From Spironucleus salmonicida (taxonomy: Eukaryota), in NCBI RefSeq assembly GCF_000497125.1, contig NC_090602.1, positions 1,116,001-1,180,000 of the forward strand: a DNA stretch of 64,000 nucleotides. Direction: 5' to 3'. The notes under the pieces are model-generated. The model did no database searches, was not told the DNA's origin, and worked only from the letters and a program-made list of their open reading frames with translations. Below are positions 4,190 through 58,393 of the stretch, one piece after another (position 1 is the stretch's first letter; each line of letters starts with the position of its first letter). The position numbers were made by a program, and so were the translations under genes.

Positions 4190-4308
4190 TTTATTAAACT
4201 GGTAAAATATAGTTTATAATATATTATATATAAAAAGTTATATTATAAATTAAAGAATAAACAAAATAAAAATAGGTAACTTTACATAAATAATACAATA
4301 TTATTGAA

Positions 4309-5625
4309 TCACTTCTTGGCAACTACTTCCTTCTGGACTTCCTGGATGATACCAACGGCGACGGTACGCTTCATGTCACGAACGGCAAAACGACCGAGGG
4401 CGGCATAATCGTTGAAAGACTCGCAGGAAAGAGGCTTGGAAGGAACCATCCTGACGACGATGCATTCACCGCGAGAGGCTTCAGTAGGGTTTTCCATTTC
4501 AGGCTTGAGGGTACGAGCGTTAAGCTTCTGGAGGAAAGCGTCAAACTTGCAGGCGATATGAGCGGTATGGCAATCGATAACTGGGGAATAACCGGGCTGG
4601 ATCTTCTTGGGGTGGTTCATGATGATGACCTGAGCGGTGAAAGACTTGCAACCAACGGGGGGATCGTTCTTGGTGTCACCAACGACGTAACCCTTCTTGA
4701 TATCCTTAGCAGCAATACCACGAACGTTGAAACCAACGTTATCACCGGGACCAGCCTGGGGAAGTTCTTCGTGATGCATTTCAACAGACTTGACTTCAGC
4801 AGTGGTGGTGGAGGGAGCGAAGACAACGGTCATGTTGGGGATGAGCAAACCGGATTCGACACGACCAGCGGGGACGGTACCGACACCATTGATCTTGTAG
4901 ACGTCCTGGATGGGGAGACGGAGAGGCTTATCAGTGGGTCTCTTGGGGGCCTTGAGTCCGTCGATGGCATCAATAAGGCAAGGGCCGGAGTACCATGGCA
5001 TGTTAGGAGACTTCTCCATGATGCTGTCACCAGTCCAGCCAGAGGTGGGGATGAAATCAAATTCGTCCCACTTCTTGTAACCGATCTGCTTAAGATTCTT
5101 CTGCATTTCTTCCTTGATTTCCTTGTAACGGGCTTCAGAATAGTTGACCTGGGGGTCATCCATCTTGTTAACGCAGACGATGAGAGTCTTGATACCAAGA
5201 GTATGAGCAAGAGTAGCGTGCTCACGAGTCTGGCCCTCCTTGGAGATACCAGCTTCGAATTCACCCTGACCGGAAGCAATTACGAGAATGGCGACATCAG
5301 CCTGAGAAGTACCGGTGATCATGTTCTTGATGAAATCACGATGGCCGGGGGCGTCGATGATGGTGACGGTGAATTTCTTGGTCTCGAACTTCCAGAGAGC
5401 GATGTTGATTGTGATACCACGTTCACGCTCATCCTTAAGCTGATCAAGAACCCAAGCATACTTGAAGGATCCCTTACCCATTTCATTGGCACGCTTTTCA
5501 TACTCATCAAGAGTACGTTAATCGATACCACCGCACTTGTAGATTAAGTGACCAGTGAGAGTGGATTTACCATTATCGACATGACCGATAACGACTAAGT
5601 TAATGTGCTTCTTTTCCTTACCCAT
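4309..5625 (-). CDS. EF1A: Elongation factor 1-alpha (copy 1)
   Basis: [22 protein letters not shown]...[15 protein letters not shown]...NKMD...LGRFAVRD; one in-frame TAA read as Gln extends the track ORF to this ATG. Confidence 0.98.
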
Positions 5626-5826
5626 TAAGACAAAGGAATGGTGGGTAAATTATGAATTGAATTTGTTAAAAATAGACCACCCAAATATATATATAAAGTA
5701 TATATTTGGACCCAGAGATGTAATTATATTTAGTTTTCGGTATAATATTTGATATTACCTCCTTATTTATGCCGTTCCTAATAGTTAGTAAAGTTACTAT
5801 TAATTTATCATAGAATTAAGCCGTTA
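5626..5826. promoter_or_regulatory. Divergent promoter region between EF1A and MYG1 (mirrored at 9380..9580)
   Basis: 201-bp AT-rich spacer between head-to-head ATGs; C-rich tract TTTACCCACCATTCCTTT just upstream of the EF1A ATG. Confidence 0.55.
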
Positions 5827-6666
5827 ATGTAAATGAGAATTTGTACACATGATGGCGCCTACCACGCCGACGATGTCATCGCAGCTTGTTTTCTTCAGAA
5901 AATCTATACCAATGTAGAAATTGTTCGCACCCGGGACTAAAGTGTAATTGATCAAGCTGATGTAGTATTCGATGTTGGCGGCGTGTACAACAAAAGCACA
6001 CTGAGGTTTGACCATCATCAGCTTTCCTTCACAGATTGCATCGGGGAGATACCTCTTTCGTCAGCCGGCCTTATCTTCCGCGACTTGGGATTGCAGCTTT
6101 GCGAGAATGGTACCCACCACCAGATCATCTACCAACGTTTTATCAAATTTATAGATATGCATGACAATGGAATTGACGGCGGTAGAGCGGAGTTTTCGTT
6201 ACAGATCGCTAAATTAGGGGCTATTGGCAAGACATTTGAACAGGCCATAGAGTTTGCGATGTAGGTACTCGATTTGGAGATTTAGTTCGCCAAGATGCTG
6301 ATCTCTAGTAAAATTGAAGTCGAGAAGGCTATTTCATAATAATCAGGGATCTTCTTGCACTTAGATAGTACTGTCATGTGGATAGAGGTGTTATATGACA
6401 TCCCTGGTAATGAAAAGTTCATGTTCGTTACTACATAGAAAAATGGCTAATACCGAATCAACACAATCAACATATCTGATTCCAGCTTCAGATCTAGATA
6501 AAAATTGCCCTAGTAATGGGCTGGTTATAGAGATTCTGAATTAGACGATATAACCGGAGTTACTGGTGGAGTTTTTGTTCACAAGGGGGCATTCGTAGGA
6601 ATTTGGAAAACTAAAGAAGCCCTAGACCAGATTAAATATATTCTCGAGAGCAAGTAAAAAGAATGA
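5827..6666 (+). CDS. MYG1: MYG1/UPF0160 family metal-dependent hydrolase/exonuclease (copy 1)
   Basis: Code-6 ORF of 279 aa: ICTHDGAYHADD, VVFDVGGVY, RFDHHQ, LSSAGLIF, IDMHDNG, LPQQWAG, GGVFVHKGAFVG. Confidence 0.9.
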
Positions 6667-6672
6667 AAAATT

Positions 6673-8385
6673 TCATTAGTAATCTTTTAAATCAACAATT
6701 CTATCTGCATATAACTTACATTACTCTCTATGCGCTACCATAATAACTAAAATTTAATGATCAGCACAAAATTCTTTGAGGCCAGTTAGTACAGTTTCTT
6801 CTGTTTCAATATCAAGAGCACTAGTAACTTCATCTAATAATAATATACCACAATCTACAACTCTGAATAAACCTCGTGCTAATGCCAGTCTTTATTTTTA
6901 TCCTCCTGATAGTTTACTAACCTCTTTTCCTTCAAAAGTAACCTTGCAAATAGTTTTAACCCTCTCCAATCTATCTGGATCAGGAAATAATCCATACATA
7001 ATTTATTAATCAATTGATAAATGTTTTGGTAATTAATCTGATTAATGTACTGAAGTTATTTAATATCTTACATCATATGGATCCATATCAGATACAGAAA
7101 CACCATTTATTAGCAAATCGCCATCTTAATAATTATATAGCTTTGTGATTAATTTCAAAAATGTAGATTTACCTTACCCAGTTTCACCTTATATAAGGTT
7201 TAAACCCCTTTTAAATTTTATAGATAGACCATTAAATATTTAAACATTTTAATAAGAAAATGCAACATTTTTTGCCTCTACTACTGGAGTTTTTTAATAT
7301 TTTGTTCTTAATTTTTTTGCTTGTTCTATATTTAAATAATTGAGAGTTTGATTAACAGACTTGAAAACAACTCTTTCACCAGTAAATGAAAGTACGTTAT
7401 TCACAAAATCCAATGAAACTCTATATGATTATAATTTACCCAAAAAATTTACTATATCATCTTTTAATTTATAAATATTATCAATACAATCCTTAAAATC
7501 CTTACATTACTTTAAAGTAAATCTATTAAAAATTAAAAAATATATTTATAACGATCCTACAATTGCTCTTTTATACACTCCAACTAAAGCATCAAGTGTT
7601 TTTCGTTTTCTTCTTGCTACATCTGAATTCATTAACAACTCTTTTTACAACTCTAGTTACTTTTTAAGTTATTAAATTTCAAAATATGCAGAATTAGATG
7701 ATTTGACTAATAACAATCTATCTTATAAATCCTATATAAATTTTGTAGTAAGTGATCGATCTCTTCTTAATGAAACTTATTCCAGCTTTGATGATTTCGC
7801 AAATATTCCACCTAAAAACATTACCAATGGAAGAGGTAAAAGAGGATAAATAAATAACTTTTAGAATTTAATTTACATAAATGATGAAACTACTTTTGTT
7901 ATTGGAACAACAATATCACCAATAAAAGATAAGAAAAATCTAGCAAAATCATTTGCAGATTCAAAATACAAGTTCAGATCTTATTATTCTGTAGATTAGT
8001 ATATGGGTTAGTTAAAATAGGATGCCAGCATCAATGAAAGACAGTCTGATCTTGATCTTGTTAGGAATGTGTAGTGAAATTTTCTAGAGAAATATGACAC
8101 TATAAAATCAAATATTTTTTGTAGTAATTTATTGAATATGACTATTGAAAACTCTTTTATAAGTTAATATAGATAATCATATTTAGTGCAAGTCATAAAA
8201 GATACTGTTGGTAAATAAATAAATTATCGTGCTTTAGACGTAAACCTATCTATATTATAATTAAGTTTTGATCCTATGATATTATCAAATACCACTTCTA
8301 TTAGTTCAAATATTAAGTAGAATAACAATGATGGCAGACTATTAATAATAATTGCAATAAGCATGATTTTTTTCTATGTTTTCAT
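6673..8385 (-). CDS. ABC transporter half-molecule (TMD + NBD), ABCB-like
   Basis: Code-6 ORF of 570 aa; Walker A GETGQGKST, signature LSGGQKQRLALARG, Walker B ILLDEVTSALD, H-loop VAHR; hydrophobic N-terminal half. Absent from the track because of many TAA/TAG codons. Confidence 0.85.
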
Positions 8386-8539
8386 TCAAGGAAAGAAAAT
8401 GTTAGCCTAGAGAAATAAAATTATATATAAAGTTTAATGGGTTGGCTTATAAACTATTAATAATTTTATTTAAACATATAATAACCTTAATAGTAAAATG
8501 TAAATAATATAAAAAACTAAGACTCTTTAAAATAATTTT

Positions 8540-9379
8540 TCATTCTTTTTACTTGCTCTCGAGAATATATTTAATCTGGTCTAGGGCTTCTTTAGTTTTC
8601 CAAATTCCTACGAATGCCCCCTTGTGAACAAAAACTCCACCAGTAACTCCGGTTATATCGTCTAATTCAGAATCTCTATAACCAGCCCATTACTAGGGCA
8701 ATTTTTATCTAGATCTGAAGCTGGAATCAGATATGTTGATTGTGTTGATTCGGTATTAGCCATTTTTCTATGTAGTAACGAACATGAACTTTTCATTACC
8801 AGGGATGTCATATAACACCTCTATCCACATGACAGTACTATCTAAGTGCAAGAAGATCCCTGATTATTATGAAATAGCCTTCTCGACTTCAATTTTACTA
8901 GAGATCAGCATCTTGGCGAACTAAATCTCCAAATCGAGTACCTACATCGCAAACTCTATGGCCTGTTCAAATGTCTTGCCAATAGCCCCTAATTTAGCGA
9001 TCTGTAACGAAAACTCCGCTCTACCGCCGTCAATTCCATTGTCATGCATATCTATAAATTTGATAAAACGTTGGTAGATGATCTGGTGGTGGGTACCATT
9101 CTCGCAAAGCTGCAATCCCAAGTCGCGGAAGATAAGGCCGGCTGACGAAAGAGGTATCTCCCCGATGCAATCTGTGAAGGAAAGCTGATGATGGTCAAAC
9201 CTCAGTGTGCTTTTGTTGTACACGCCGCCAACATCGAATACTACATCAGCTTGATCAATTACACTTTAGTCCCGGGTGCGAACAATTTCTACATTGGTAT
9301 AGATTTTCTGAAGAAAACAAGCTGCGATGACATCGTCGGCGTGGTAGGCGCCATCATGTGTACAAATTCTCATTTACAT
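8540..9379 (-). CDS. MYG1: MYG1/UPF0160 family protein (copy 2)
   Basis: Mirror of 5827..6666. Confidence 0.9.
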
Positions 9380-9580
9380 TAACGGCTTAATTCTATGATA
9401 AATTAATAGTAACTTTACTAACTATTAGGAACGGCATAAATAAGGAGGTAATATCAAATATTATACCGAAAACTAAATATAATTACATCTCTGGGTCCAA
9501 ATATATACTTTATATATATATTTGGGTGGTCTATTTTTAACAAATTCAATTCATAATTTACCCACCATTCCTTTGTCTTA

Positions 9581-10897
9581 ATGGGTAAGGAAAAGAAGCA
9601 CATTAACTTAGTCGTTATCGGTCATGTCGATAATGGTAAATCCACTCTCACTGGTCACTTAATCTACAAGTGCGGTGGTATCGATTAACGTACTCTTGAT
9701 GAGTATGAAAAGCGTGCCAATGAAATGGGTAAGGGATCCTTCAAGTATGCTTGGGTTCTTGATCAGCTTAAGGATGAGCGTGAACGTGGTATCACAATCA
9801 ACATCGCTCTCTGGAAGTTCGAGACCAAGAAATTCACCGTCACCATCATCGACGCCCCCGGCCATCGTGATTTCATCAAGAACATGATCACCGGTACTTC
9901 TCAGGCTGATGTCGCCATTCTCGTAATTGCTTCCGGTCAGGGTGAATTCGAAGCTGGTATCTCCAAGGAGGGCCAGACTCGTGAGCACGCTACTCTTGCT
10001 CATACTCTTGGTATCAAGACTCTCATCGTCTGCGTTAACAAGATGGATGACCCCCAGGTCAACTATTCTGAAGCCCGTTACAAGGAAATCAAGGAAGAAA
10101 TGCAGAAGAATCTTAAGCAGATCGGTTACAAGAAGTGGGACGAATTTGATTTCATCCCCACCTCTGGCTGGACTGGTGACAGCATCATGGAGAAGTCTCC
10201 TAACATGCCATGGTACTCCGGCCCTTGCCTTATTGATGCCATCGACGGACTCAAGGCCCCCAAGAGACCCACTGATAAGCCTCTCCGTCTCCCCATCCAG
10301 GACGTCTACAAGATCAATGGTGTCGGTACCGTCCCCGCTGGTCGTGTCGAATCCGGTTTGCTCATCCCCAACATGACCGTTGTCTTCGCTCCCTCCACCA
10401 CCACTGCTGAAGTCAAGTCTGTTGAAATGCATCACGAAGAACTTCCCCAGGCTGGTCCCGGTGATAACGTTGGTTTCAACGTTCGTGGTATTGCTGCTAA
10501 GGATATCAAGAAGGGTTACGTCGTTGGTGACACCAAGAACGATCCCCCCGTTGGTTGCAAGTCTTTCACCGCTCAGGTCATCATCATGAACCACCCCAAG
10601 AAGATCCAGCCCGGTTATTCCCCAGTTATCGATTGCCATACCGCTCATATCGCCTGCAAGTTTGACGCTTTCCTCCAGAAGCTTAACGCTCGTACCCTCA
10701 AGCCTGAAATGGAAAACCCTACTGAAGCCTCTCGCGGTGAATGCATCGTCGTCAGGATGGTTCCTTCCAAGCCTCTTTCCTGCGAGTCTTTCAACGATTA
10801 TGCCGCCCTCGGTCGTTTTGCCGTTCGTGACATGAAGCGTACCGTCGCCGTTGGTATCATCCAGGAAGTCCAGAAGGAAGTAGTTGCCAAGAAGTGA
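9581..10897 (+). CDS. EF1A: Elongation factor 1-alpha (copy 2)
   Basis: Mirror of 4309..5625; in-frame TAA(Gln) at 9686..9688; ends AAG-TGA. Confidence 0.98.
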
Positions 10898-11044
10898 TTT
10901 ACGGTTTATATTTTCTATATTCTTATTTATAGTTATAGGCATTAATTAAATCGTAGATAAATTTCATCTCAAATTAAACATTATTACCAATATTATATAC
11001 TAAAATTAAAATTTTAAAATTTTAACTTAAGTACACTCCTCTAA

Positions 11045-13183
11045 ATGAATCCTTTCATATCAACTATAACTTAAGTTTTAAATGGCAACACTATTTTGTT
11101 ACAGAATGGTATATAAGTAATATTATCAGGTGTTTAAGCAGATAATTAAATAGCTGCTAAAGAATTCTTAAGGAAGAATACTATTGGTAACTAAGTTTCA
11201 GTAACTCCCATTAAGCAGCTTTCAGAGAAAAAAATTATCGCAACAGTTATTCTTAAAAATTTTGATATCTCAGTATAGCTTGCGAAGAAAGGTTTAGGAT
11301 CTCCCTTTGGTTCAGGCTCATAAGCAGATGCAGTTAAGTAGGCATATATTGAAAAAGAATAGATATTATATAGTGTAGAAGACTATACAAAGAACTAATC
11401 ATCTTCTTTACAATCATTTATTAAGCAAAACTAACAAATCTCAGGATATATAGACTATGTAATATCTCCAGAAAAAGTTATATTTGTAACATTTATTGCA
11501 TCTAAATAAATTAAATTTTTAGCCAAGCCATAGGATATTATTTCACTTAATGAATAATCCATTTCAGATATAAATTTATTTATTTAAAAATAAGCTACAT
11601 TAGTTCCTAACTTCATTGAAAATAATATTGTTACTTCATTAATAACTTATTAAGGTGCAAACAATACATCAATTAATCTTAGTGATGCATTAGTCTCTAA
11701 GAAAAATTATTCCTATGTTTTGAAAAAAGAAAAGGGGGCATTGATTCAAGGCTGCCATGTAATTTCTGTGTTTTCTTCTGATTAGATAACTGTAAAAATA
11801 AATAACTAAGAAGAAAAATTCTATTTTAGTTCAATATATGCCCCAAGAGTCACCAAAGAATCAGTGGAAGACTATGCTATTGAATCTAGAGAATTTGTTA
11901 GAATGTAACTTTTTAATAAAATTGTTGATATCATAATAGATTACGAAAAAAACGATAAAAAGTTTGTTTCTGTATATATTAATAAGAAAAACTTTAATAT
12001 TCAGTATATTCAAACTGGTTTAGTATAATTAATGAAACATTCAAAATCAGATTTAAATAGAGCTAATAATTATGAAGAACTTCTAAAAATTGAGCCAAAT
12101 AAACCTGAAGCTCCTATAAAAATTAAAATTACAGATTTCTAAGATCAAAAAATTGATGAAATCAAAACCAAAGTAGCTAAATTTTCTGGATAAAAAACTA
12201 AATTCCAAGCAACTGTAGAGCAAATAATATCAGGTAGTAAGTACAAATGCTTGCTTTAATTAAACCAAAGCACATTTTACAATATTATTATCAATTTAGC
12301 TCAAGTTTATGTACCATAAGTTAAAAAATTCGAAAAATACAGTGAAGAAGCCCAAGATTTTGCCAGAGACTCATTATTGTACTAGAAAGTAACAATTATA
12401 TTCTCGCCGAATATCGAAAAGCACACAAATTCAGTATTTTCTTTTATTTATCTAGAAAATATTCTTTTTAACGCATAAGTAGTTGCAAAAGGTCTTGGAA
12501 AAGCCCAACATGACTCAATTTAAGAAATTTAATGTGCAGAAAGTGAAGCAAAAAGTAAATTTTTGAAATTATATGAAAAATAAATCGAAAATCAAAGAGT
12601 TTCTAACGGGAAAATAATTTGCAAGATTATTGAATTTAGCGATAATTGTGAGGTTATTATGAAAAAAGTTGATGAGAAATTACCTGAAATTAAAGCGTAT
12701 GAGAGGATTGCACCGAAATTACACGACTTTGTAGCAGTTTTAGAGAATGGAAAATTTTTACGTGCAAACATTCTTAGCGTTTCTCCATTATTGATATTAT
12801 AGATTGATACTGGGAATAAGTCAATAATAGGGTTAGATCAAGTATATAAACTTGAAAAATAATATTTTGATGAATAAAAATAAGTTTTTGGCATTTAATT
12901 AGCCTGTATAATAATACACAATAATGAAATACAAGCTGTAAAGTAACTATTCTAGGAGTAAATTTGTGGTGAAAATCTAGTAGTTTTTGTTACGAATGAA
13001 GGAGCATTCGTAATGGCTCCGGAAGTCTCAAAACTAAATGCCCAAGACTCAATCAGTGGTTTTTTGCTTGAAAAAGGTCTCGCAAAAATAGATGAAAACT
13101 GTTCAGAAAATGATCTTTTGATCGATTTGGGGCGTATTGAAGGCGAAGCAATCCAGGCCAATAGAGGCTTGTGGAAGAAGTGA
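11045..13183 (+). CDS. SND1: Tudor-SN / SND1-like protein with repeated staphylococcal nuclease domains
   Basis: Code-6 ORF of 712 aa with repeated SNase-like segments (VLNGNTI...AAKEFLRKNTIG; SSIYAPR...YAIESREFVR; EEAQDFAR...) and C-terminal LLEKGLA...AIQANRGLW. Confidence 0.75.
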
Positions 13184-13639
13184 TGAAATGAAATTTTAAT
13201 ATCAATCACTATTAATAGAGTATCACTATATGAAATTAAAATTTATACTAGTACTATCCTGGTTTGCTTATATTAATATCCATTTATGGATGATACACTA
13301 ATATTTAAATAAAAATAAAAATATAATAAATTTAGTTAATAATTTTCTGCATGAAATAAGTTTATCACTAAAAAATTTAGATAAATATATTTATGATCTC
13401 ATACATATAATTCATATAAATATACTAGATCTTAGAATCTTATGCACTTAAAGATTTATTAAACTTACTTCTATACTTTCTAAAATATATTGATCAGATT
13501 AATTCGTGCAATTATGATTGCAAATAATAAATCTGTTGTCTAGTCAAGATGACTAATTTTTCATTTAATTTTTAATTCAATTTAAGAAAATTCAAAAATA
13601 TGCGTGAATAAACTATTAGTATAAAATAATACTTTTGTT

Positions 13640-14587
13640 ATTTTAATTAAAGAAAGACAAATTAAAATTTCTTATTATATAAAAAATGGTGAAAATTATT
13701 TTCTATAGGTAAATAAAACTATGTTTAAATTTTGCCTTAATATATAATGTACTGGATACTTAAGATTAAAATAAGGTAATAATATTAATAGAAAAGCCAG
13801 TTTCTAATGAAACTAATAACTAAATTATTTTTAGTATTTGCAATACTGTTTTTTAAAATTACAATGAACGATTTTCATGTAACATTACTTACTTATTAAA
13901 ATACGTTATATACTTATTAGAAATAAAGTTCAATGAAATTTAATTATTGATTAAATTAACACCTTTTGATAAGAATCTGAAAATTTTATTGTAGCATAAT
14001 TTGTAAGTTAAAATCCAAATATCATCTCACTTTTATTAATAGTAATGAAGTATATATTTCTTGACGAACCTACTACTGGATTAGACCCATAAACTAAAAG
14101 AACAGTATGGAAAGCAATAAAATAGGCTTCTATAGGTAATACCGTTATACTTACAACTCACTCTATGGAAGAAGCTGATGCATTATGTGATAGAATAGGA
14201 ATTTTAGTTGCTGGGTAACTTAGGGCAATTGGAACGGCCTAACATTTGAAAATTAGATTTGGATCTGGTTATAAAATAGTCATTTAGGGTACTGAGATGG
14301 GGATTTATAAAGTCATAGATAAATTAAAAGCAATAATTAACTCAATTACCTAACTCGAATTTTAACCAATAATAGGAACTGATAATAAATATAAATCTTA
14401 ATTATTTTTCAAAGAAAAATGTTAATTATCCCATATTTGGATATGCCTATTTGAGAGTAAAACTGAAGACCTCATAACTGAATATTCTATAAACTATACT
14501 GATTTAGAAGACGTATTTTTAAAAATAGTCGATCGTATAGAACCTGCTGAATAATGTTGTTTACAGAGCAACGATGATGTGGAGTGA
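13640..14587 (+). pseudogene. Degenerate ABCA-type transporter; C-terminal NBD part still open (14045..14587)
   Basis: YIFLDEPTTGLDP...VILTTHSMEEADALCDRIGIL...LKIRFGSGY...LEDVFL is ABCA-like. Upstream, Walker A and the signature motif are not recoverable and frames contain TGA. The 5' limit is approximate. Confidence 0.65.
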
Positions 14588-15078
14588 GGCTGCTTTACGC
14601 TTTCAGGTCTGCAGCGGGAGGAAGGAGGCCCATACCACGGCAACGCAGGCGGTCAGACTGGCGCAGTGGAGGGCCTAGTCGATTACAAACACCGAAACTC
14701 TGCAGGCACGGATCTACATTCGTGATGAGTTGCGACTCCTCCAGTGCGACTTGGCCAGATCAATCAGAAAATGTGATCCAAACTCCACAGCAAATGATCC
14801 TGCGATAGCAGCGGTTGCATAACTAGGTCGGTAGCCAAAGTAAAGCGTGAAGGGCGGAACGATGAGTAGTTGAAGATAAGTAACCTAAAGTGAGTGTAAC
14901 CAGATACCCTTCTTGCATGGCGTGGACTTATCGCCGCACTAACATAGAAACTAAAACAAGCCATCGGCAGCGAGGTGCTTTGCCAGCAGTGCTAAGTAGA
15001 GGTACACTAGACTAGGAAGCTCCATTCCGTTTACATACAACCTTATATTGTATAATAATATGCATTACTACAAGGGAC

Positions 15079-16173: not shown

Positions 16174-16318
16174 TATATTAGAATTACAATTTTTAAGTTT
16201 ATTAATGAGAAAATGGTTCTATACTGACTAATAAAAAGATTAGAGTTAGAGTAATATTCAAGTAGTTTTCCAGCCGTGTGGGGTAGTATGTTGTAAAAAA
16301 AGCACAATAAACAGTGAG

Positions 16319-17194: not shown

Positions 17195-17596
17195 ATGGAA
17201 TATGATTTCGATTTAATTGGAGCAGAGTCATCGCCCAGTACATCTGATGATGAACATATATCAATATCTTTGATATAAATAACAGATCTATCATTTCTAG
17301 AGAGGCGTGGAACTTCTCTACGTGTTATTGAGTATCCTTAAGATCTCATTCGTTAATAAACTATAATCGAACAATCTGCCGTATTCTCCATTATAAATGG
17401 TTTATGCGTCTAATAAAGGATGATGAAATGTTCAATATTTAGGTTTATACGCTATATTACAATTCATGGTGAGCTATATTTCATCCCACAAACATAACAT
17501 CGGTCATCGATATAGCTTGCTATATCTTGTTAACATATTTAATAATAAAGACTGATGATTTAAGCTTTTATAGTAAGGCTTCGATATTCTAAGTGA
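17195..17596 (+). CDS. Hypothetical protein (133 aa)
   Basis: Code-6 ORF MEYDFDLIGAESSPSTSDDE...; pyrimidine-rich tract upstream; ends AAG-TGA. Confidence 0.5.
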
Positions 17597-47258: not shown

Positions 47259-47285
47259 TCGAAGCGAGATGTAAGTTGAAAAATT

Positions 47286-47358
47286 CGCCTTTTGGCGGGA
47301 TTGAACCGTCGACCTTGCGGTTAACAGCCGCACGCTCTACCTGCTGAGCTAAAAAGGC
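47286..47358 (-). tRNA. tRNA-Asn(GTT)
   Basis: Identical to 31719..31791 in reverse complement. Confidence 0.95.
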
Positions 47359-48539
47359 ATACCTTAGTAACTGTAATAAGATACATAGTATTAGACTATC
47401 AAGATAGGCCGCGAGTGTAGAGCTTTCGTGCTAAAATTCGAAACTATAGCGTGCAAGAGAGGATCTTATAGCGTATTAAATATAACCTGAATGCGTATCT
47501 CCGAACTATAACAATATTAACACTTTAAATCATAGTATCTAATATTACCGAACTTTCGCTTATTGTGACTCCGTTAAACTATTATTACTGTAATATATTA
47601 TACAAACAGATCAGTTTATGACGATACTTCACAATGTGCATTATGTTACCTTCAAACAACTATGCCATGTAACAGCAATACTTTGTAACCATAAGAAGTT
47701 ACGTTTTATGAATAAGTAAGTATATAATAAATATAAAATTTATATTTGCAAATATTTTAAAATACTGTAGTAAATATTTAAATGTTAATTATAGATATAT
47801 ACAAGTTGAAAATTAGATATAATTATCTCTGAATCGGAGTATTCATTAATTAAATCTACAATGAGGAAATAGAAAATCGGCGATAAATTTTAACAGGCTA
47901 AACTTTGCATGAAATTGGTATCAAAACTCTGATTACTTTAAACTAAATATAAACAGAATATGATTGGTCATATTCGCGGGGATAAATCTAACAAAAAGCC
48001 GTCAAAGCTACTATATGGATTAGTTAAATTTGTCCATTTCATTTTGTAGTACATAAATGATATTGAAACAAGTTATCACATATTAGTGTGACAGATTTGC
48101 TGGGAAATCACTTGCTATAGTAAATAGATGACATATATATTTATGGGCTGATTAATTCTATGTCAAAACTGTTGTTTTTAATAATGGTAGATACAATAAG
48201 AAATAAATGTTACTAAGCGAATTCATATGACTATGCAGTCTCCAAAGATAAAATATGTGAAATTTTGAAGTTTAAAATAATTTGGATAAAGTAGATTTTC
48301 ACCAGCACACGATAATTCTTATTTTTTAGTAATAGGAAGACTTTGTCCTCTTAAAATTTTGGATTATATATCTTTTAATTGATGAATACAGTGAATTTTG
48401 ATAGATATACATTATTAAGTCGGAATTTGTACGAAATGATTCTGATTAAGAGATCTTTATAGGTTAAATTATGTATAATCAAGTGTAAAACTTCTACCCA
48501 GCACCAGTAAATTAATTTTATCTGTTTGTGCTATCATTA

Positions 48540-49600
48540 TTTAATCAATGATCAGGAGGATGAGGGCATCCCCTGCACTCCGATCCTGGAGCAGCTTCCT
48601 ACAAAGGATATGGTACGGGCTCAGGTGTATATAAGGTTACTGGACGCGCCGTTGTGACCCTACACCTGTGCAATCTCCATGTTATCTGCACGTTGGTAGG
48701 GCTATCGGTGTAAATATGCAGCCTTGCCATTGAATATATGCATGCATCTGGAGATCGCAAGTGTGCTGGCCGTGGTATACCCAGGTTGGCTGCTTGTGTG
48801 CGTATAACAATCTGAAGTGGTCAGTGGGGAGCGATAAAATTATTCTGATTAACATGATATCCCTCACGACGGCCCGGCTCTTCTCCGTGCAAACGAACAC
48901 CCCAGCGACGCGAGAGAGCCCATACATGCCGTATTCCACCTCTATAGGGCGGCATCCTATGGATGCTGTGCTATGCCTGTTCACCGAGGCGGCAATCGTG
49001 CATAATATATGTTCGACTGCAATCCTCGCTCCACAATAGCTTTGTACTCCACACTGGTACATACCTATATGGATGTCTACTGAGTGGCTATTCATACACA
49101 CCGAGCAGCGGTAGGTCTGGAACTTAGTGTATCACATGTACACGGCGATGATGAAGCAGGCATCGTCCATGATGCAGCCCGCACTAGGCCAAGTATGGAA
49201 CGCGCATACGGTGCCAGGAGTGTTTGTGACAAAATTGTTCACATACTTGATGCACTGTACGGTGTCATCGGATGGCAGCTCGAGCATCAGGAAATAGCGT
49301 GGCACTATTCGTTGGAGGCACTTATATGTGTCTACGGGTATGCATTTAATACGGTTATTTGATCCTCTTGGACAGAACCTAGCTTTCACCCTCTATATGG
49401 GCGTATAATTGGTAGATGCCTTTAGCGTAGATCGCTGCATCGTCGACACATGACACCGGTGTCATTGGCACATTCACAAATTATGGTGCTAGAGTCGTAG
49501 CTAATATCAGAAAAAGGACTTTAGCATTATTTCGGGTCTGTAAGGGAGCACTGATAGCGATTACGCACGCCAGCGCAAGAAATTTGAGGAGTGGTAGAAA
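48540..49600 (-). pseudogene. Fragmented cysteine-rich/secreted protein remnant (left copy)
   Basis: Mirror of 55941..57001; limits approximate. Confidence 0.35.
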
Positions 49601-51502
49601 CTAAAAAGCGTTATTTTCCAATTATTTTTTGAACTTATAAGACTGCTAAGTTGTCCCCAGGTAAGTTATACTCATATGATAATGTTGATATCATATTGAT
49701 TATAGAACATTAGAGCAATTAAATATGTTATTAATAACCACTTTTATAGTATTGAAATGTTATAAATAAGTTATAGCAAAGTGAAGCATAAAATATTGAG
49801 TATCTTCGTAAAACCAAGGTATTATATACATTAATTTACTGAATTTGAATAATGTTAGTGGTCAAATTTTGCTAATATAAATCTATGATACCCATATTAC
49901 AAACTATATGTATTAAATAAAAATAACAGATTGTAGCTAATCTTAAATGTTAAGTTCCCGTGTCTAGTAACCTAGTATCTATCTTGTGTAGGATCGTAAT
50001 GTACCATAAGTAGAATCTAGATATCATCGGTAATTTCATAGAAGGTGAGGATGGTGATGCAGAGACACCGAAGATCAATACAAGACTAGGTAAACTAGGG
50101 GGCGTGAGTACGATGTGATTGCCAGCAGGTCATCTGGGAATAAGTTGGATTTGTAACATTGAAATGGATGGATCATCGTATATTTCGGCGCCGTGGGTTG
50201 ATCAGAAACTATTAATACCTCCATAGTAACGGAATGCTTGTTGCACTACAGTTTACCGTGCAAATGGACTTAGTAGGTGGGAAGGTTCCCTCCGTATACA
50301 TGATTAATATATAATTTTAAAAATCAGCATTCCCAATGCAGAGGTACTTCAATAGACGGCCGAAGAACATATTTAGGCCCTTCGAGACATCTGGTAATGC
50401 GTGCATTAAAGCACAAGAGCTTCGATACTTTCTGTGCGAAACAGAGTGTGCATAATGACCATGAATATCGTAATTATCATCACGCTGCTCGGCAAGAACA
50501 ACGATAGGCTTCTCGATAAGTGGGATTTGAACCTCTGCTTTCCCATAGGAAGGAATTACAATCAGGAGAATTCCTAACCCTGGTTTTCTTTGATGAATAC
50601 ACGGACAACTCTGGAATGGTACATTCTAGTGAGTTCATCAAAAAATGACTAATCTCGATACAAGCTTCCAAAGGAAGAATCTGCCCTTCTCCTCATGTAG
50701 TTTATATACTACTAAGATCAGCATATCAGCTGTTTATGTTTTGTGAGCCTTGTTACCGAATTCATTAAAGAGTGAGTGATAAATCCAAAATGCAATTTAC
50801 GCAGGCTCTTTAGGCGAAATTCTGACATAAGAGGATCCCGATGGCTGTCCTTACCGCTTAAAAGACCTAGGTTCTTAGGTTCTAGCATATTTCCCTCTCA
50901 GAGTAATAATTACTATCCCTAATGCTCTGCTTTCGGATCGTAGTTGCTGGTCTTAGCTAAATCCTGCCGTGGTATGGCCATAACTAGGCCCTATTGAATG
51001 CCGGATCTCATTGCTAGCAGTCATTTAGCTTTAGTTTAAGGTACCAACTACACTGAGTTACCATCGTCTTCATCTATTTAAATATCTCATCCCATATATC
51101 CTGGTTCTAGTGCCCGAGGTAGAGCAGCACGTGGTCATAGTCTTGTCCAGGAATGACCCACCGCATATCCACCAGAAGGGGGCCAATTGTCAGCTATGAG
51201 TCTCATTTATCCCACCTAGAAGCCAACCCATAATGCACATGCTGACTGCTGTGCCAGCGAGATAAGTGGTGGGAGGTCTTGATGATGGCTGCCGAACGCG
51301 GAATATTTTAGAATATGATGGATTAAAATGTTATCCACGTGGTGTCCGGTACAGTGCATAGAAAGACTAGGTCACGCCAACGTAACACTTGGTGTAGTGC
51401 GATCTTTCTCATCTGACACTACTGTAAAATCAAATGCTGCGAAAAGGTTGGTCACCAGCCTACCATACTAGGATCGATGTATGGACTCCAGGACGGAGCT
51501 CA

Positions 51503-51526
51503 CTACTACTACTACTACTACTACTA
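51503..51526 (+). repeat. (CTA)8 microsatellite; (TAG)6 at 54021..54038 in the other arm
   Basis: Read directly from the sequence. Confidence 0.9.
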
Positions 51527-51701
51527 GCATATGAATTATTTACCTCATTCTGCGGGAATTATCATTCAAATCTTAAATTTACACTCAGATATATTTACTT
51601 AAATCCATATATAAACATATAATCAGTTATTTCAAATTAAAGTTGCTAAATTGAGATAGATATGCATTTATTTATCATTGAAAAACGTATAAAAAATAAT
51701 T

Positions 51702-51774
51702 CGCCTTTTGGCGGGATTGAACCGTCGACCTTGCGGTTAACAGCCGCACGCTCTACCTGCTGAGCTAAAAAGGC
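51702..51774 (-). tRNA. tRNA-Asn(GTT)
   Basis: Identical 73-nt copy. Confidence 0.95.
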
Positions 51775-51965
51775 ATATATGGAGATAAATAAATCTAATT
51801 TTAATTATCCTAACTAATCAAATTATCTAAATATAAGTCTTATTTATCAATAGTACCTTAACAGTAAGTAATAATATGAGTTCAGAAGCATCATATACTT
51901 AGTACAACTAAAATATTCTAACTTTTTGCTAATATCCGTTAAAATATAATAGCCACGAAATAAGA

Positions 51966-53420
51966 TCACTCAACATAATCTAATATATCTATTAACTCAT
52001 CCTTTCTAAGCTCAACCTCCTGCACTCCTTGCCTCATCCTGTCAAGTCTCTGGAGATCCTTTCCACTAAGCCAAGAATTTGCTCTGTCTTCTTCAGTACC
52101 AGACATGCCACCGCCAAGAATTCTAATAGCAGAGTTTCTACTATTTTATGCTGTAAATGAATTAAAATACCTCAAGAATTAAAGAGATAATATATCTTTT
52201 TCTAATGCATATAGTTCTAATGACACATTTGACGATAATTAGTCTTTAACTTATCTAATAAGATTCTTATATGAATCCAATGCTCCATTGAAATTAAATA
52301 ATGAAGAATTCTCTATCTAAACAGTTAAATAATGGAATACAATGAATTTACATAAATTGGGTGTGAATTTATCTGTTGTGCAACTGATTGTAGCCTTGAT
52401 CAAATTTTCTGGTGTTTTTCTACAATTAATATCTCCATATAATTAAATCAAGTTGAAAATGATATTATCTTCATATTTCATACCGACAATCATTATTCTT
52501 AATCTATCAAACTCTTTCCAAGCTTCTGATATAGAATCAAATTTCCACAAACAGCTACTGAATATTTCTAAATAATTTCTATAAAAACCAAACATTGCAG
52601 TAAGATCACCGCTTAAAACTCTAAGGATTCTTTCCGAATCGCAGATTTATACTTCATTCAATGAATCAAAAACAGATTTCCAATTTGAAACTTTACCCGC
52701 ACACACTACTAAAGCTAATCTATTTTGTTTATGATTTTCTAAAATTTTGGCAGCTTCTGAAAACTTACCTATGGCTAATAATAAAAGGACCTTTTATGTC
52801 AAATCTGTACATCTACTAATAGACTACAATAAATATTCTTCAAAAAATTTTTTCAATGTAAAATATCTCGAATCTTTCTCTACCTATTCATTTTCTTCTT
52901 CAAATGTTAGTTAATACATAGGTATTTATGAATGAAACTAGGTTCCGAATAAAATAGCTAAAAGCTGCATAACTGCTCTAGTTATTTAAAATTCATTATT
53001 CACATCTGAAATAGTCATATTACCATTCAAATCAAATGAAAGTCCTGTTTCAGTTTTAAGTGGGTTTAAACTTAAAACAGAAAAAGCTTATGTTTAAAGC
53101 TAAATTGAAGGGTGTGTTTCAGCTAAATTTAAAAATAACTAAGTAGTCTCAGGAGATTTTTAGTATGGTTTTAGTATTTCTGGTGATTAAAATTATGTTA
53201 AAACTTAATCTGTATTAGAAATTTGAACTTTGTTATTCTAGAAATAAATAGCTTTCTATCTTGTAGACGTCGCAATACAATAATTTTATTACTTCAAAAA
53301 TTTCTTTGGTGGTGGCAATGGTAAAGCTGAATTCAAGTCATATTAATTATTTGTCTAAACTCCGGATATTTCCATTTTAGATAATGCTAGATCAGCATCC
53401 ATATTATGAGTTTCGAACAT
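51966..53420 (-). CDS. Alpha-helical hypothetical protein (484 aa), possibly Nup96-like; last 96 nt lie in the IR3 left arm
   Basis: Code-6 ORF MFETHNMDADL...LLAIGKFSEAAKILENHKQNRLALVCAG...ERILRVLSGD...ILDYVE, ends GAG-TGA. Confidence 0.6.
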
Positions 53421-53772
53421 TTAAAAAGATAAAATTAATTAGTATGTATAACATATAATTTATATTATGATTTTAATTATTCTGTAAGGATCTCCAGAGA
53501 CTTGACAGGATGAGGCAAGGAGTGCAGGAGGTTGAGCTTAGAAAGGATGAGTTAATAGATATATTAGATTATGTTGAGTGATCTTATTTCGTGGCTATTA
53601 TATTTTAACGGATATTAGCAAAAAGTTAGAATATTTTAGTTGTACTAAGTATATGATGCTTCTGAACTCATATTATTACTTACTGTTAAGGTACTATTGA
53701 TAAATAAGACTTATATTTAGATAATTTGATTAGTTAGGATAATTAAAATTAGATTTATTTATCTCCATATAT

Positions 53773-53845
53773 GCCTTTTTAGCTCAGCAGGTAGAGCGTG
53801 CGGCTGTTAACCGCAAGGTCGACGGTTCAATCCCGCCAAAAGGCG
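53773..53845 (+). tRNA. tRNA-Asn(GTT)
   Basis: Identical 73-nt copy. Confidence 0.95.
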
Positions 53846-55940
53846 AATTATTTTTTATACGTTTTTCAATGATAAATAAATGCATATCTATCTCAATTTA
53901 GCAACTTTAATTTGAAATAACTGATTATATGTTTATATATGGATTTAAGTAAATATATCTGAGTGTAAATTTAAGATTTGAATGATAATTCCCGCAGAAT
54001 GAGGTAAATAATTCATATGCTAGTAGTAGTAGTAGTAGTGAGCTCCGTCCTGGAGTCCATACATCGATCCTAGTATGGTAGGCTGGTGACCAACCTTTTC
54101 GCAGCATTTGATTTTACAGTAGTGTCAGATGAGAAAGATCGCACTACACCAAGTGTTACGTTGGCGTGACCTAGTCTTTCTATGCACTGTACCGGACACC
54201 ACGTGGATAACATTTTAATCCATCATATTCTAAAATATTCCGCGTTCGGCAGCCATCATCAAGACCTCCCACCACTTATCTCGCTGGCACAGCAGTCAGC
54301 ATGTGCATTATGGGTTGGCTTCTAGGTGGGATAAATGAGACTCATAGCTGACAATTGGCCCCCTTCTGGTGGATATGCGGTGGGTCATTCCTGGACAAGA
54401 CTATGACCACGTGCTGCTCTACCTCGGGCACTAGAACCAGGATATATGGGATGAGATATTTAAATAGATGAAGACGATGGTAACTCAGTGTAGTTGGTAC
54501 CTTAAACTAAAGCTAAATGACTGCTAGCAATGAGATCCGGCATTCAATAGGGCCTAGTTATGGCCATACCACGGCAGGATTTAGCTAAGACCAGCAACTA
54601 CGATCCGAAAGCAGAGCATTAGGGATAGTAATTATTACTCTGAGAGGGAAATATGCTAGAACCTAAGAACCTAGGTCTTTTAAGCGGTAAGGACAGCCAT
54701 CGGGATCCTCTTATGTCAGAATTTCGCCTAAAGAGCCTGCGTAAATTGCATTTTGGATTTATCACTCACTCTTTAATGAATTCGGTAACAAGGCTCACAA
54801 AACATAAACAGCTGATATGCTGATCTTAGTAGTATATAAACTACATGAGGAGAAGGGCAGATTCTTCCTTTGGAAGCTTGTATCGAGATTAGTCATTTTT
54901 TGATGAACTCACTAGAATGTACCATTCCAGAGTTGTCCGTGTATTCATCAAAGAAAACCAGGGTTAGGAATTCTCCTGATTGTAATTCCTTCCTATGGGA
55001 AAGCAGAGGTTCAAATCCCACTTATCGAGAAGCCTATCGTTGTTCTTGCCGAGCAGCGTGATGATAATTACGATATTCATGGTCATTATGCACACTCTGT
55101 TTCGCACAGAAAGTATCGAAGCTCTTGTGCTTTAATGCACGCATTACCAGATGTCTCGAAGGGCCTAAATATGTTCTTCGGCCGTCTATTGAAGTACCTC
55201 TGCATTGGGAATGCTGATTTTTAAAATTATATATTAATCATGTATACGGAGGGAACCTTCCCACCTACTAAGTCCATTTGCACGGTAAACTGTAGTGCAA
55301 CAAGCATTCCGTTACTATGGAGGTATTAATAGTTTCTGATCAACCCACGGCGCCGAAATATACGATGATCCATCCATTTCAATGTTACAAATCCAACTTA
55401 TTCCCAGATGACCTGCTGGCAATCACATCGTACTCACGCCCCCTAGTTTACCTAGTCTTGTATTGATCTTCGGTGTCTCTGCATCACCATCCTCACCTTC
55501 TATGAAATTACCGATGATATCTAGATTCTACTTATGGTACATTACGATCCTACACAAGATAGATACTAGGTTACTAGACACGGGAACTTAACATTTAAGA
55601 TTAGCTACAATCTGTTATTTTTATTTAATACATATAGTTTGTAATATGGGTATCATAGATTTATATTAGCAAAATTTGACCACTAACATTATTCAAATTC
55701 AGTAAATTAATGTATATAATACCTTGGTTTTACGAAGATACTCAATATTTTATGCTTCACTTTGCTATAACTTATTTATAACATTTCAATACTATAAAAG
55801 TGGTTATTAATAACATATTTAATTGCTCTAATGTTCTATAATCAATATGATATCAACATTATCATATGAGTATAACTTACCTGGGGACAACTTAGCAGTC
55901 TTATAAGTTCAAAAAATAATTGGAAAATAACGCTTTTTAG

Positions 55941-57001
55941 TTTCTACCACTCCTCAAATTTCTTGCGCTGGCGTGCGTAATCGCTATCAGTGCTCCCTTA
56001 CAGACCCGAAATAATGCTAAAGTCCTTTTTCTGATATTAGCTACGACTCTAGCACCATAATTTGTGAATGTGCCAATGACACCGGTGTCATGTGTCGACG
56101 ATGCAGCGATCTACGCTAAAGGCATCTACCAATTATACGCCCATATAGAGGGTGAAAGCTAGGTTCTGTCCAAGAGGATCAAATAACCGTATTAAATGCA
56201 TACCCGTAGACACATATAAGTGCCTCCAACGAATAGTGCCACGCTATTTCCTGATGCTCGAGCTGCCATCCGATGACACCGTACAGTGCATCAAGTATGT
56301 GAACAATTTTGTCACAAACACTCCTGGCACCGTATGCGCGTTCCATACTTGGCCTAGTGCGGGCTGCATCATGGACGATGCCTGCTTCATCATCGCCGTG
56401 TACATGTGATACACTAAGTTCCAGACCTACCGCTGCTCGGTGTGTATGAATAGCCACTCAGTAGACATCCATATAGGTATGTACCAGTGTGGAGTACAAA
56501 GCTATTGTGGAGCGAGGATTGCAGTCGAACATATATTATGCACGATTGCCGCCTCGGTGAACAGGCATAGCACAGCATCCATAGGATGCCGCCCTATAGA
56601 GGTGGAATACGGCATGTATGGGCTCTCTAGCGTCGCTGGGGTGTTCGTTTGCACGGAGAAGAGCCGGGCCGTCGTGAGGGATATCATGTTAATCAGAATA
56701 ATTTTATCGCTCCCCACTGACCACTTCAGATTGTTATACGCACACAAGCAGCCAACCTGGGTATACCACGGCCAGCACACTTGCGATCTCCAGATGCATG
56801 CATATATTCAATGGCAAGGCTGCATATTTACACCGATAGCCCTACCAACGTGCAGATAACATGGAGATTGCACAGGTGTAGGGTCACAACGGCGCGTCCA
56901 GTAACCTTATATACACCTGAGCCCGTACCATATCCTTTGTAGGAAGCTGCTCCAGGATCGGAGTGCAGGGGATGCCCTCATCCTCCTGATCATTGATTAA
57001 A
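55941..57001 (+). pseudogene. Fragmented cysteine-rich/secreted protein remnant (right copy)
   Basis: C-rich motif TTCTACCACTCCTC followed by signal-peptide-like FLALACVIAISA with no ATG; Cys-rich stretches (CECAND, CRRC, CSVC) are spread over different frames with TGA stops. Confidence 0.35.
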
Positions 57002-58182
57002 TAATGATAGCACAAACAGATAAAATTAATTTACTGGTGCTGGGTAGAAGTTTTACACTTGATTATACATAATTTAACCTATAAAGATCTCTTAATCAGA
57101 ATCATTTCGTACAAATTCCGACTTAATAATGTATATCTATCAAAATTCACTGTATTCATCAATTAAAAGATATATAATCCAAAATTTTAAGAGGACAAAG
57201 TCTTCCTATTACTAAAAAATAAGAATTATCGTGTGCTGGTGAAAATCTACTTTATCCAAATTATTTTAAACTTCAAAATTTCACATATTTTATCTTTGGA
57301 GACTGCATAGTCATATGAATTCGCTTAGTAACATTTATTTCTTATTGTATCTACCATTATTAAAAACAACAGTTTTGACATAGAATTAATCAGCCCATAA
57401 ATATATATGTCATCTATTTACTATAGCAAGTGATTTCCCAGCAAATCTGTCACACTAATATGTGATAACTTGTTTCAATATCATTTATGTACTACAAAAT
57501 GAAATGGACAAATTTAACTAATCCATATAGTAGCTTTGACGGCTTTTTGTTAGATTTATCCCCGCGAATATGACCAATCATATTCTGTTTATATTTAGTT
57601 TAAAGTAATCAGAGTTTTGATACCAATTTCATGCAAAGTTTAGCCTGTTAAAATTTATCGCCGATTTTCTATTTCCTCATTGTAGATTTAATTAATGAAT
57701 ACTCCGATTCAGAGATAATTATATCTAATTTTCAACTTGTATATATCTATAATTAACATTTAAATATTTACTACAGTATTTTAAAATATTTGCAAATATA
57801 AATTTTATATTTATTATATACTTACTTATTCATAAAACGTAACTTCTTATGGTTACAAAGTATTGCTGTTACATGGCATAGTTGTTTGAAGGTAACATAA
57901 TGCACATTGTGAAGTATCGTCATAAACTGATCTGTTTGTATAATATATTACAGTAATAATAGTTTAACGGAGTCACAATAAGCGAAAGTTCGGTAATATT
58001 AGATACTATGATTTAAAGTGTTAATATTGTTATAGTTCGGAGATACGCATTCAGGTTATATTTAATACGCTATAAGATCCTCTCTTGCACGCTATAGTTT
58101 CGAATTTTAGCACGAAAGCTCTACACTCGCGGCCTATCTTGATAGTCTAATACTATGTATCTTATTACAGTTACTAAGGTAT

Positions 58183-58255
58183 GCCTTTTTAGCTCAGCAG
58201 GTAGAGCGTGCGGCTGTTAACCGCAAGGTCGACGGTTCAATCCCGCCAAAAGGCG
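58183..58255 (+). tRNA. tRNA-Asn(GTT)
   Basis: Identical 73-nt copy. Confidence 0.95.
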
Positions 58256-58282
58256 AATTTTTCAACTTACATCTCGCTTCGA

Positions 58283-58393
58283 ATGGCTGAGGTGCACCTC
58301 ACAGACCTCCTAGCTGCGTACCAGGCCGGCACACGCACCGTCAAAAATCTGACCTCTGACGTCATCTGCACCTCTGCCCCCCGCTCCACCGGT
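58283..58393 (+). pseudogene. Orphan 5' fragment (37 codons) of the 46032..47258 gene
   Basis: MAEVHLTDLL...APRSTG is identical, then identity stops at the arm boundary. Confidence 0.7.

Follow-up and report, generated by a model that had tools for sequence, protein, structure and literature searches.

Three spaced palindromes with near-identical arms and unique, gene-bearing spacers in a 64-kb stretch of the Spironucleus salmonicida genome

The DNA considered here is a stretch of 64,000 nt from Spironucleus salmonicida (NCBI RefSeq assembly GCF_000497125.1, contig NC_090602.1, positions 1,116,001 to 1,180,000), referred to below as the window. It contains three inverted-repeat pairs (IR1, IR2, and IR3), each consisting of two arms in opposite orientation on either side of a spacer of unique DNA that carries at least one gene. 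When TAA and TAG were read as glutamine, many long open reading frames (ORFs) were obtained, including two of 1940 and 2322 codons, while almost none were obtained with the standard code. A Pfam scan of 35 window ORFs gave 13 above the curated cut-off, and the families found included HydF, EF-1alpha, CTP synthase, SNF2 helicase, tubulin, and histidyl-tRNA synthetase. Among named relatives, the EF-1alpha in the window was closest to that of Giardia, at 85% identity, and to that of Trepomonas sp. PC1, at 83%. An initial annotation, made from the letters alone, had spoken of chromosome copies in two nuclei, and this remark fits a diplomonad as judged from the genetic code, HydF, and the relatives of EF-1alpha. 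The genome of S. salmonicida measures 12.9-14.7 Mb, has a GC content of 33.5%, and is carried on nine chromosomes (PMC9509377).

An inverted-repeat search, a base-by-base comparison, and self-BLASTN were applied to the window. All three pairs were recovered by each of the three methods, and the coordinates and lengths given in the initial annotation were reproduced throughout (Table 1). The arms combined come to 19,334 bp, or 30.2% of the window, matching the earlier estimate of about 19.3 kb and 30%. The same annotation had placed the differences between arms at 0 to 2 sites, and substitutions were indeed found at 0 of 2366, 1 of 2390, and 1 of 4908 positions for IR1, IR2, and IR3, respectively, together 2 in 9,664 compared bases (0.02%), to which IR3 adds a 6-bp length indel in a (TAC)n run near 51508-51531. 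Arm-to-arm identity is above 99.9% in all three pairs and is 99.98% over approximately 4.9 kb in IR3; the single mismatch in IR2 leaves the encoded protein unchanged. Perfect inverted matches of 2.4-4.9 kb cannot be attributed to chance. The repeat search was able to extend the IR2 match to 14583/20858 with a second mismatch at 14588, giving a weak fringe at the outer end in which 5 of 6 bases match, and a fringe of 9 nt (47139-47147, 6 of 9 positions matching) was present at the outer end of IR3. All boundaries were otherwise abrupt, a few bases being enough for the identity to drop from 100% to background. No sequence common to different pairs was found by self-BLASTN of the window, in agreement with the earlier claim, and the longest k-mers shared between spacers were AT-rich words of 11-13 nt. 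Since the three pairs have no sequence or end motif in common beyond AT-rich 9-11-mers, they were deduced to be independent of one another.

Sequencing support was sought in the contigs of four public runs, which derive from one sample, perhaps the source of the assembly, and which were aligned with positions 4000-21200 of the window, containing IR1 and IR2. A single contig, exactly 2366 nt long, represented the IR1 arm in all four runs. The arm of IR2 was present as two contigs (14589-16351 and 16571-16978), broken only at 75-nt tandem repeats. The contigs of the IR1 spacer (6643-8563) and the IR2 spacer (16949-18492) were likewise found in all four runs, each with a 30-nt overlap to the arm on either side. 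The flank contigs were separate, also with 30-nt overlaps to the arms, and two of them extended for 37,665 nt and 10,920 nt. Contigs therefore broke exactly at the arm boundaries, and all junction types were seen. As the flank contigs continue into unique DNA, the duplications were deduced to be interstitial; no terminal deletion, telomere healing, or translocation was seen beside the arms, where unique flanks and genes continue on both sides.

The depth of the arm contigs was 1.8-2.7 times that of five unique contigs of the same run in each of the four runs, a ratio to be read with the reservation that the library type of the runs is not on record and that contig depth does not equal copy number. 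In run X1, the depth was 425.8 for the IR1 arm and 432.2 and 463.8 for the IR2 arm contigs compared to 157.8-180.4 for the unique contigs, the values set against IR1 being 157.8-176.1 and those set against IR2 159-180, and in run X3 it was 24.6-28 for the arms compared to 11.5-13 for unique DNA. This is the opposite of the arm depth of about half the unique depth which the initial annotation had named as the sign of an artefact. Flank-arm-spacer-arm-flank is the sole path in which the arm occurs twice and the other pieces once. A spacer joined directly to a flank was not seen in any contig, rare variants being dropped by contigs, and this argues against a common palindrome-less allele. No other letters were reported in the arm contigs, from which it follows that polishing is unlikely to have hidden real differences between the arms. 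The contigs are built from short words, and a flipped spacer gives the same junction words. It was concluded that the structures are not fold-back assembly artefacts, and the three palindromes were confirmed to be real, independent, interstitial inverted segmental duplications. The run contigs also showed loose ends, at approximately 4235, 8075-8318, and 21083/21084; the last point lies 53 nt downstream of the stop codon (21137-21139) of CTP synthase, and 4216-4263 resembles 22758-22805. At 8075-8318 and 21083/21084, the sequence of the contigs agrees with the window only from these points onwards and is a different one before them. These loose ends are most likely short sequences common to other loci, and further copies of the 3' region of CTP synthase and of part of the IR1 spacer may exist in the genome.

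Table 1. Coordinates of the inverted-repeat pairs and associated features in the window
Feature	Position	Strand	Length	Remarks
IR1 left arm	4307-6672		2366 bp	0 mismatches vs reverse complement of right arm
IR1 right arm	8534-10899		2366 bp	
IR1 unique spacer	6673-8533		1861 bp	GC 0.25
IR2 left arm	14589-16978		2390 bp	1 mismatch vs right arm, at 15436
IR2 right arm	18463-20852		2390 bp	
IR2 unique spacer	16979-18462		1484 bp	GC 0.27
IR3 left arm	47148-52061		4914 bp	1 mismatch vs right arm, at 48912
IR3 right arm	53486-58393		4908 bp	
IR3 unique spacer	52062-53485		1424 bp	GC 0.27
EF-1alpha gene, left copy (IR1)	4309-5625	-	438 aa + stop	Pfam GTP_EFTU 2.6e-58 and C-terminal domains
EF-1alpha gene, right copy (IR1)	9581-10897	+		tblastn 100% identity over 438 aa
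MYG1/UPF0160 gene, left copy (IR1)	5827-6666	+	279 aa	Pfam MYG1_exonuc 1.2e-63; exact public match
MYG1 gene, right copy (IR1)	8540-9379	-		tblastn 100% identity over 279 aa
ABC-type ATPase/transporter gene, IR1 spacer	6673-8385	-	570 aa	Pfam ABC_tran 2.3e-19; exact public match
DUF3307 membrane-protein gene (IR2)	14603-15025	-	140 aa	Pfam DUF3307 5.5e-10; exact public match
DUF3307 gene, right-arm mirror copy	20416-20838	+		
Cysteine-rich single-pass membrane protein gene (IR2)	15079-16140	-	353 aa	Exact public match; no Pfam family
Cysteine-rich protein gene, right-arm mirror copy	19301-20362	+		
Metallothionein-like cysteine-rich ORF, 75-nt tandem repeats (IR2)	16319-16639	-		Composition only; no Pfam match
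Metallothionein-like ORF, right-arm mirror copy	18802-19122	+		
IR2 spacer gene model	17195-17596	+	133 aa	Exact public match
IR2 spacer gene model	17597-18313	-	238 aa	Q-rich coiled coil; exact public match
Left-flank gene (IR3)	46032-47258	-	408 aa	Exact public match; start codon mapped
IR3 spacer gene	51966-53420	-	484 aa	No family; exact public match
IR3-arm gene model	50164-50775	+	203 aa	No family; only IR3-arm ORF with exact public match
tRNA-Asn(GTT), left arm	47285-47359	-		137 nt inside outer end; ARAGORN; Rfam 65.1 bits
tRNA-Asn(GTT), left arm	51701-51775	-		286 nt inside inner end; ARAGORN, Rfam
tRNA-Asn, right arm	53772-53846 and 58182-58256	+		ARAGORN, Rfam
Truncated duplicate, first 37 codons of left-flank gene	58283-58393	+		Diverges at arm boundary
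Direct paralogue pair	32219-33811 and 34841-36355	both -		No Pfam family; 44% protein identity; very AT-rich; GC3 (GC content at third codon positions) 0.18-0.21

The direction of copying could be deduced for IR3 from the genes that cross its boundaries. The left arm includes the first 111 nt (37 codons) of the flank gene and the last 96 nt (31 codons plus stop) of the spacer gene, and in the right arm both genes are present only as truncated ends. Since the ends of the right arm cut through genes whose left-hand versions are complete, the left arm is shown to be ancestral and the right arm to be a derived copy of 47148-52061, which sits reversed between the spacer and the tRNA-Arg flank. The remainder of the arm proved poor in genes. 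None of 10 IR3-arm ORFs, including two read through in-frame TGA as X, matched a Pfam family at E<=1. Rfam at E<=1 returned the two tRNA-Asn genes of the arm together with snoR104 at 24.6 bits, below the 40-bit cut-off, and no hidden paralogues came to light in the arms when 24 window proteins were searched against the window with tblastn. About 4 kb of the arm is without recognisable genes, and because the arms are for the most part of this kind, purifying selection was excluded as the cause of the IR3 arm identity. The tRNA-Asn(GTT) gene occurs five times in the 64 kb (the fifth at 31718-31792), in 83-nt units that are 98-100% identical; four of the five lie near the four IR3 arm ends, and a tRNA-Arg(CCT) gene (58477-58551) lies just outside the right arm. 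The tRNA genes near both arm ends might mark fork-pausing sites.

The IR1 arm consists of exactly two divergently transcribed genes, EF-1alpha and MYG1/UPF0160, and its boundaries lie 2 nt past the EF-1alpha stop codon and 6 nt past the MYG1 stop codon. The spacer is accounted for by the ABC-type gene, with a GC3 of 0.156, and the 148 nt upstream of it, and the stop codon of this gene abuts the left arm. The initial annotation had assigned intact genes to every spacer; at least one model in each of the three spacers was found to be letter-identical to a public protein. The best non-self matches of the MYG1 protein were at 33-35% identity, the few named ones being largely bacterial or metagenomic, and no diplomonad relative was among those listed. 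This pattern could correspond to lateral transfer or to a poorly sampled family. When the MYG1 protein was used to scan metagenome contigs, 7 loci were obtained at 33-40% identity, with no close relative among them and none useful for synteny.

In the IR2 arm, the stop codon of the DUF3307 gene is 14 nt inside the outer boundary. The neighbouring gene encodes a protein with cysteine-rich sequence and a C-terminal hydrophobic stretch, as read from the translation, and gave no match to the family of VSPs (variant-specific surface proteins). The metallothionein-like ORF is overlapped in another frame by an ORF of 183 codons (16258-16809); with these starts, neither translation was present in the public protein collection, and the metallothionein-like gene may be unannotated. 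The two gene models of the spacer are convergent and abutting. On the plus strand outside the left arm, a gene model of 180 aa (14045-14587) corresponds to an ABC ATPase domain in its C-terminal half, the region of Walker B and the H-loop, and its stop codon is 1 nt before the arm. No Walker A or LSGG motif was found in any plus-strand frame of the 860 nt upstream of 14045, and the gene appears to be truncated. Of the six distinct arm boundaries in the window, three (4307, 6672, and 14589, with their mirrors) are within 14 nt of a stop codon, which could reflect selective trimming or breakpoints at transcript 3' ends.

The arms differ from the spacers in base composition. The GC content is 0.446, 0.459, and 0.381 for the arms of IR1, IR2, and IR3 compared to 0.25-0.27 for the spacers, and GC3 is 0.42-0.73 for arm genes compared to 0.16-0.23 for spacer genes (Mann-Whitney p=0.005); arm genes also differ in GC3 from the other unique genes (p=0.015). 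This contrast agrees with published figures for the whole genome, in which duplicated regions have 44.7% GC compared to 30.7% elsewhere, 19.2% of the sequence being duplicated at >=95% identity over >=2 kb (PMC9509377). The GC3 of genes in the window is bimodal, at approximately 0.16-0.27 or 0.39-0.73; in view of the published GC-richness of duplicated regions, the GC-rich genes that are unique here might have copies in other parts of the genome. Short tandem repeats and tRNA copies aside, the window has just one further duplication, a direct pair (32664-33721 and 35286-36343) with 64% DNA identity, and no diverged inverted pair was found in the window by self-BLASTN. The direct duplicate has thus diverged where the inverted ones are identical.

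The palindromes were compared with known systems. For Giardia intestinalis, 14 inverted pairs of identical vsp genes are described, with ORF-to-ORF distances of 2190-3847 bp and an identity that ends at abrupt divergence points, and identical vsp genes were not found outside of these pairs (Adam et al. 2010; PMC2996952). When the divergence distance was doubled and taken off the distance between the ORFs, 13 pairs were left with unique spacers of 1365-2986 bp and a median of approximately 1.7 kb (derived from Table 5 of PMC2996952). In Giardia muris, identical VSP pairs are 1656-10,612 bp apart with genes or pseudogenes between them (PMC7641422). The palindromes of the window resemble the Giardia VSP pairs in their diplomonad host, in having identical genes head-to-head or tail-to-tail, in the abrupt divergence, and in the kb-sized spacers, which at 1424-1861 bp belong to the same size class as those of about 1365-2986 bp derived for Giardia. 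They differ in having multi-gene arms and in the cargo, which in place of VSP genes comprises EF-1alpha, MYG1, DUF3307, the cysteine-rich membrane protein, the metallothionein-like ORF, and tRNA-Asn. Giardia intestinalis also has two EF-1alpha genes (GL50803_112304 and GL50803_112312), located on the same strand about 37 kb apart, with coding regions that differ by 2 nt and with differing up- and downstream regions (PMC10711314; bioRxiv 10.1101/2022.07.13.499947). As with the IR1 arms, the same gene is duplicated and the identity ends near the gene (here 2 nt past the stop codon), but the Giardia copies do not form a local palindrome.

The palindromes of the primate Y and X chromosomes have arms of tens of kb to Mb and spacers longer than those found here, and they are located on sex chromosomes of a sexual organism, whereas the present ones are on an ordinary chromosome of a binucleate protist. 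They are alike in the combination of gene-bearing inverted arms, a unique spacer, and an arm identity above 99.9%. For the primate palindromes, gene conversion and rare spacer inversions have been documented (PMC3723533, PMC8600007, PMC8981503); conversion and GC bias were demonstrated there by population and cross-species data, while here we infer them only. Inverted-repeat gene pairs of Caenorhabditis (hsp-16 and F44E5.4/5) have multi-gene arms of approximately 2 kb that are 99.7-100% identical including intergenic DNA, and these are old structures kept identical across species, which was attributed to gene conversion (PMC1803023). Their spacers are 126-414 bp compared to 1.4-1.9 kb here, and such repeats are rare in C. 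elegans while they occupy 30% of the window. In human fold-back inverted duplications, the inverted copy is again separated from the original by a kb-scale normal-copy spacer (766-70,466 bp, median 3,428 bp), read as the fold-back loop (PMC3907307). The human events are Mb-sized and found beside terminal deletions or translocations, whereas those of the window are 2.4-4.9 kb, interstitial, and set in intact unique flanks, and the inverted microhomology of 2-8 bp shown for the human events cannot be isolated here. Origin-dependent inverted-repeat amplification (ODIRA), a replication template-switch model, gives inverted triplications (PMC10766183), unlike the present case with only two arms and an arm depth of 1.8-2.7 times rather than 3 times.

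From these data, the preferred interpretation, to which a probability of about 0.6 was given, is that the palindromes arose as independent interstitial inverted duplications by template switching or fold-back, and that their arms were then homogenised by conversion or are very young. In each case, a segment of 2.4-4.9 kb would have been copied again in reverse at a distance of 1.4-1.9 kb from itself. The simplest route would be an error of replication or repair with two template switches, giving the order L-A-S-A'-R. A stalled or broken nascent strand would fold back or switch to the complementary template approximately 1 kb behind. With A and S copied, it would change over to the complementary strand where A has its inner end, copy A backwards, and return to the original template at R, the looped-out stretch becoming the unique spacer. 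An inverted-duplication origin is well supported for IR3 by its gene order, and a template-switch origin would fit the polarity of IR3, boundaries that fall within genes, and the lack of mobile-element features. Arm-to-arm gene conversion, which is plausible and is favoured for the maintenance of the arms, would erase the differences between them; the other possibility is a very recent origin of the copies. Duplicates may also persist more readily in inverted orientation, since recombination between inverted arms would flip the spacer and delete no copy. As to relative ages, IR1 looks like an older pair trimmed to selected genes because its boundaries lie just past stop codons at both ends, and IR3 looks young because it carries dead gene fragments and about 4 kb in which no genes are recognisable. 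What we infer from the structures is an origin by template switching, gene conversion between arms, an advantage in persistence, the order of ages, and the flipping of spacers. The initial annotation had proposed a recurrent fold-back or template-switch mechanism with subsequent arm-to-arm conversion and spacer flipping, an interpretation that is reasonable and in part supported. Of this proposal, the part that held is that the duplications are real, independent, interstitial, and without mobile-element features, with a replicative origin fitting the polarity of IR3; proof was not obtained from the junctions.

The other explanations differ widely in their probability. Palindromic chimeras are a known fault of hairpin-adapter long-read libraries, and chimeric fold-back reads or a mis-join could have given the assembly inverted copies that are absent from the chromosome. 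The runs that speak against this come from one sample, possibly that of the assembly itself, which leaves the argument some room; it was nevertheless judged scarcely credible, as the arm contigs exceed the flank and spacer contigs in depth in all four runs, the spacer contig meets the arm at both ends while the outer end of the arm meets two different unique flanks, and a single path uses the arm twice. The spacers, moreover, are unique gene-bearing DNA, which is not found in fold-back chimeras. It was also considered that the arms could be the terminal inverted repeats of mobile elements or that a site-specific invertase acts on them, since a unique core between inverted arms bears a superficial likeness to composite transposons and invertible segments. 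This was deemed very improbable, given that the pairs have no common sequence and share nothing at their boundaries beyond AT-rich 9-11-mers, that no target-site duplication was found at the arm junctions, and that the arm cargo consists of ordinary cellular genes (EF-1alpha, MYG1, and tRNA-Asn). The earlier observation that no transposase or recombinase gene is visible was borne out, no transposase, integrase, or recombinase family being found among the 35 + 11 ORFs (46) scanned with Pfam.

A more serious possibility, albeit still an unlikely one, is that the palindromes are real but very young, and that a high rate of birth and death yields near-identical pairs with no need for gene conversion. 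The arms differ by only 0, 1, and 1 substitutions, the dead fragments of two genes in IR3 still look intact beside its gene-poor 4 kb, there are no diverged inverted pairs as the sign of an older cohort, and the high duplicated fraction of the genome (19.2% at >=95% identity; PMC9509377) is also in line with youth. Against it, all three pairs fall below the allelic heterozygosity of 0.09% (PMC9509377), at which approximately 8.7 differences would be expected and 2 were seen. The IR1 boundaries, 2 and 6 nt past stop codons, resemble those of a trimmed older unit, and the confinement of identical vsp genes to inverted pairs in Giardia suggests that the arrangement itself maintains identity. Conversion is favoured over youth by the arm divergence of 0.02% compared to 0.09% between alleles, by the presence of a diverged direct but no diverged inverted pair, and by the GC-rich arms, none of these points being decisive. 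Several observations weigh against the preferred interpretation of template-switch duplication with subsequent conversion. A very recent origin explains the arm identity equally well at each single locus, and the polarity of origin is fixed for IR3 and not for IR1 or IR2. The junctions, with exact microhomology of <=2 nt and weak fringes of 5/6 and 6/9, do not prove a template switch, microhomology of this length neither proving nor excluding one. The base composition is suggestive of GC-biased conversion in the arms but is confounded because several unique genes are just as GC-rich, with a GC3 of 0.515 for CTP synthase, 0.468 for SNF2, and 0.699 for the gene at 46032-47258, and the intergenic DNA between EF-1alpha and MYG1 in the IR1 arm has a GC content of 0.259, within the range of unique non-coding DNA (0.11-0.31). 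The near-identity of the same-strand EF-1alpha copies in the Giardia reports cited above implies that an inverted arrangement is not strictly required for it in diplomonads, and the four runs share a single sample, possibly the one that was assembled, with no library type recorded.

Gene-bearing palindromes that are kept identical are best known from sex chromosomes. In diplomonads, such palindromes were known only for the surface-antigen genes of Giardia; here the cargo consists of EF-1alpha, a tRNA, and other everyday genes. The words "inverted" and "palindrom" do not occur in the main text of the 2014 S. salmonicida genome paper, the supplements of which may list orientations, and the full text of PMC9509377 makes no mention of palindromes or of the orientation of duplicated regions, which its supplements may likewise list. 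No description of palindromes in Spironucleus was found in full-text literature searches, although supplements may hold a list. The palindromes offer a concrete explanation for the 19.2% duplicated, GC-rich fraction of the S. salmonicida genome, which is unexplained so far. The two single-base differences (A/G at 15436 and G/T at 48912) and the one microsatellite difference, in the (TAC)n length, between arms are natural markers for mitotic conversion and inversion in a parasite that is binucleate, tetraploid, and apparently asexual; with reads shorter than the arm, variants cannot be placed and the orientation of a spacer cannot be read. The whole palindromes measure about 6.6 kb for IR1, 6.3 kb for IR2, and 11.3 kb for IR3, and the long reads behind the published S. 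salmonicida assembly had an N50 of 14.6 kb (PMC9509377).

The density of 30%, the housekeeping cargo, and the Giardia-like spacer size suggest a lineage-wide way of making and keeping duplicates. A broader and rather doubtful hypothesis is that diplomonads have a recurrent process generating interstitial palindromes with a loop of approximately 1.4-3 kb and frequent conversion, that local palindromes make up a large share of the duplicated, GC-rich 19% of the S. salmonicida genome, and that spacers flip freely among the four chromosome copies. If this is true, palindromes would carry housekeeping as well as surface-protein genes in S. salmonicida, biased conversion within them could be one cause of the GC-rich compartment, and it would chiefly be in them that recombination and copy correction take place in these organisms, for which no sex has been observed.

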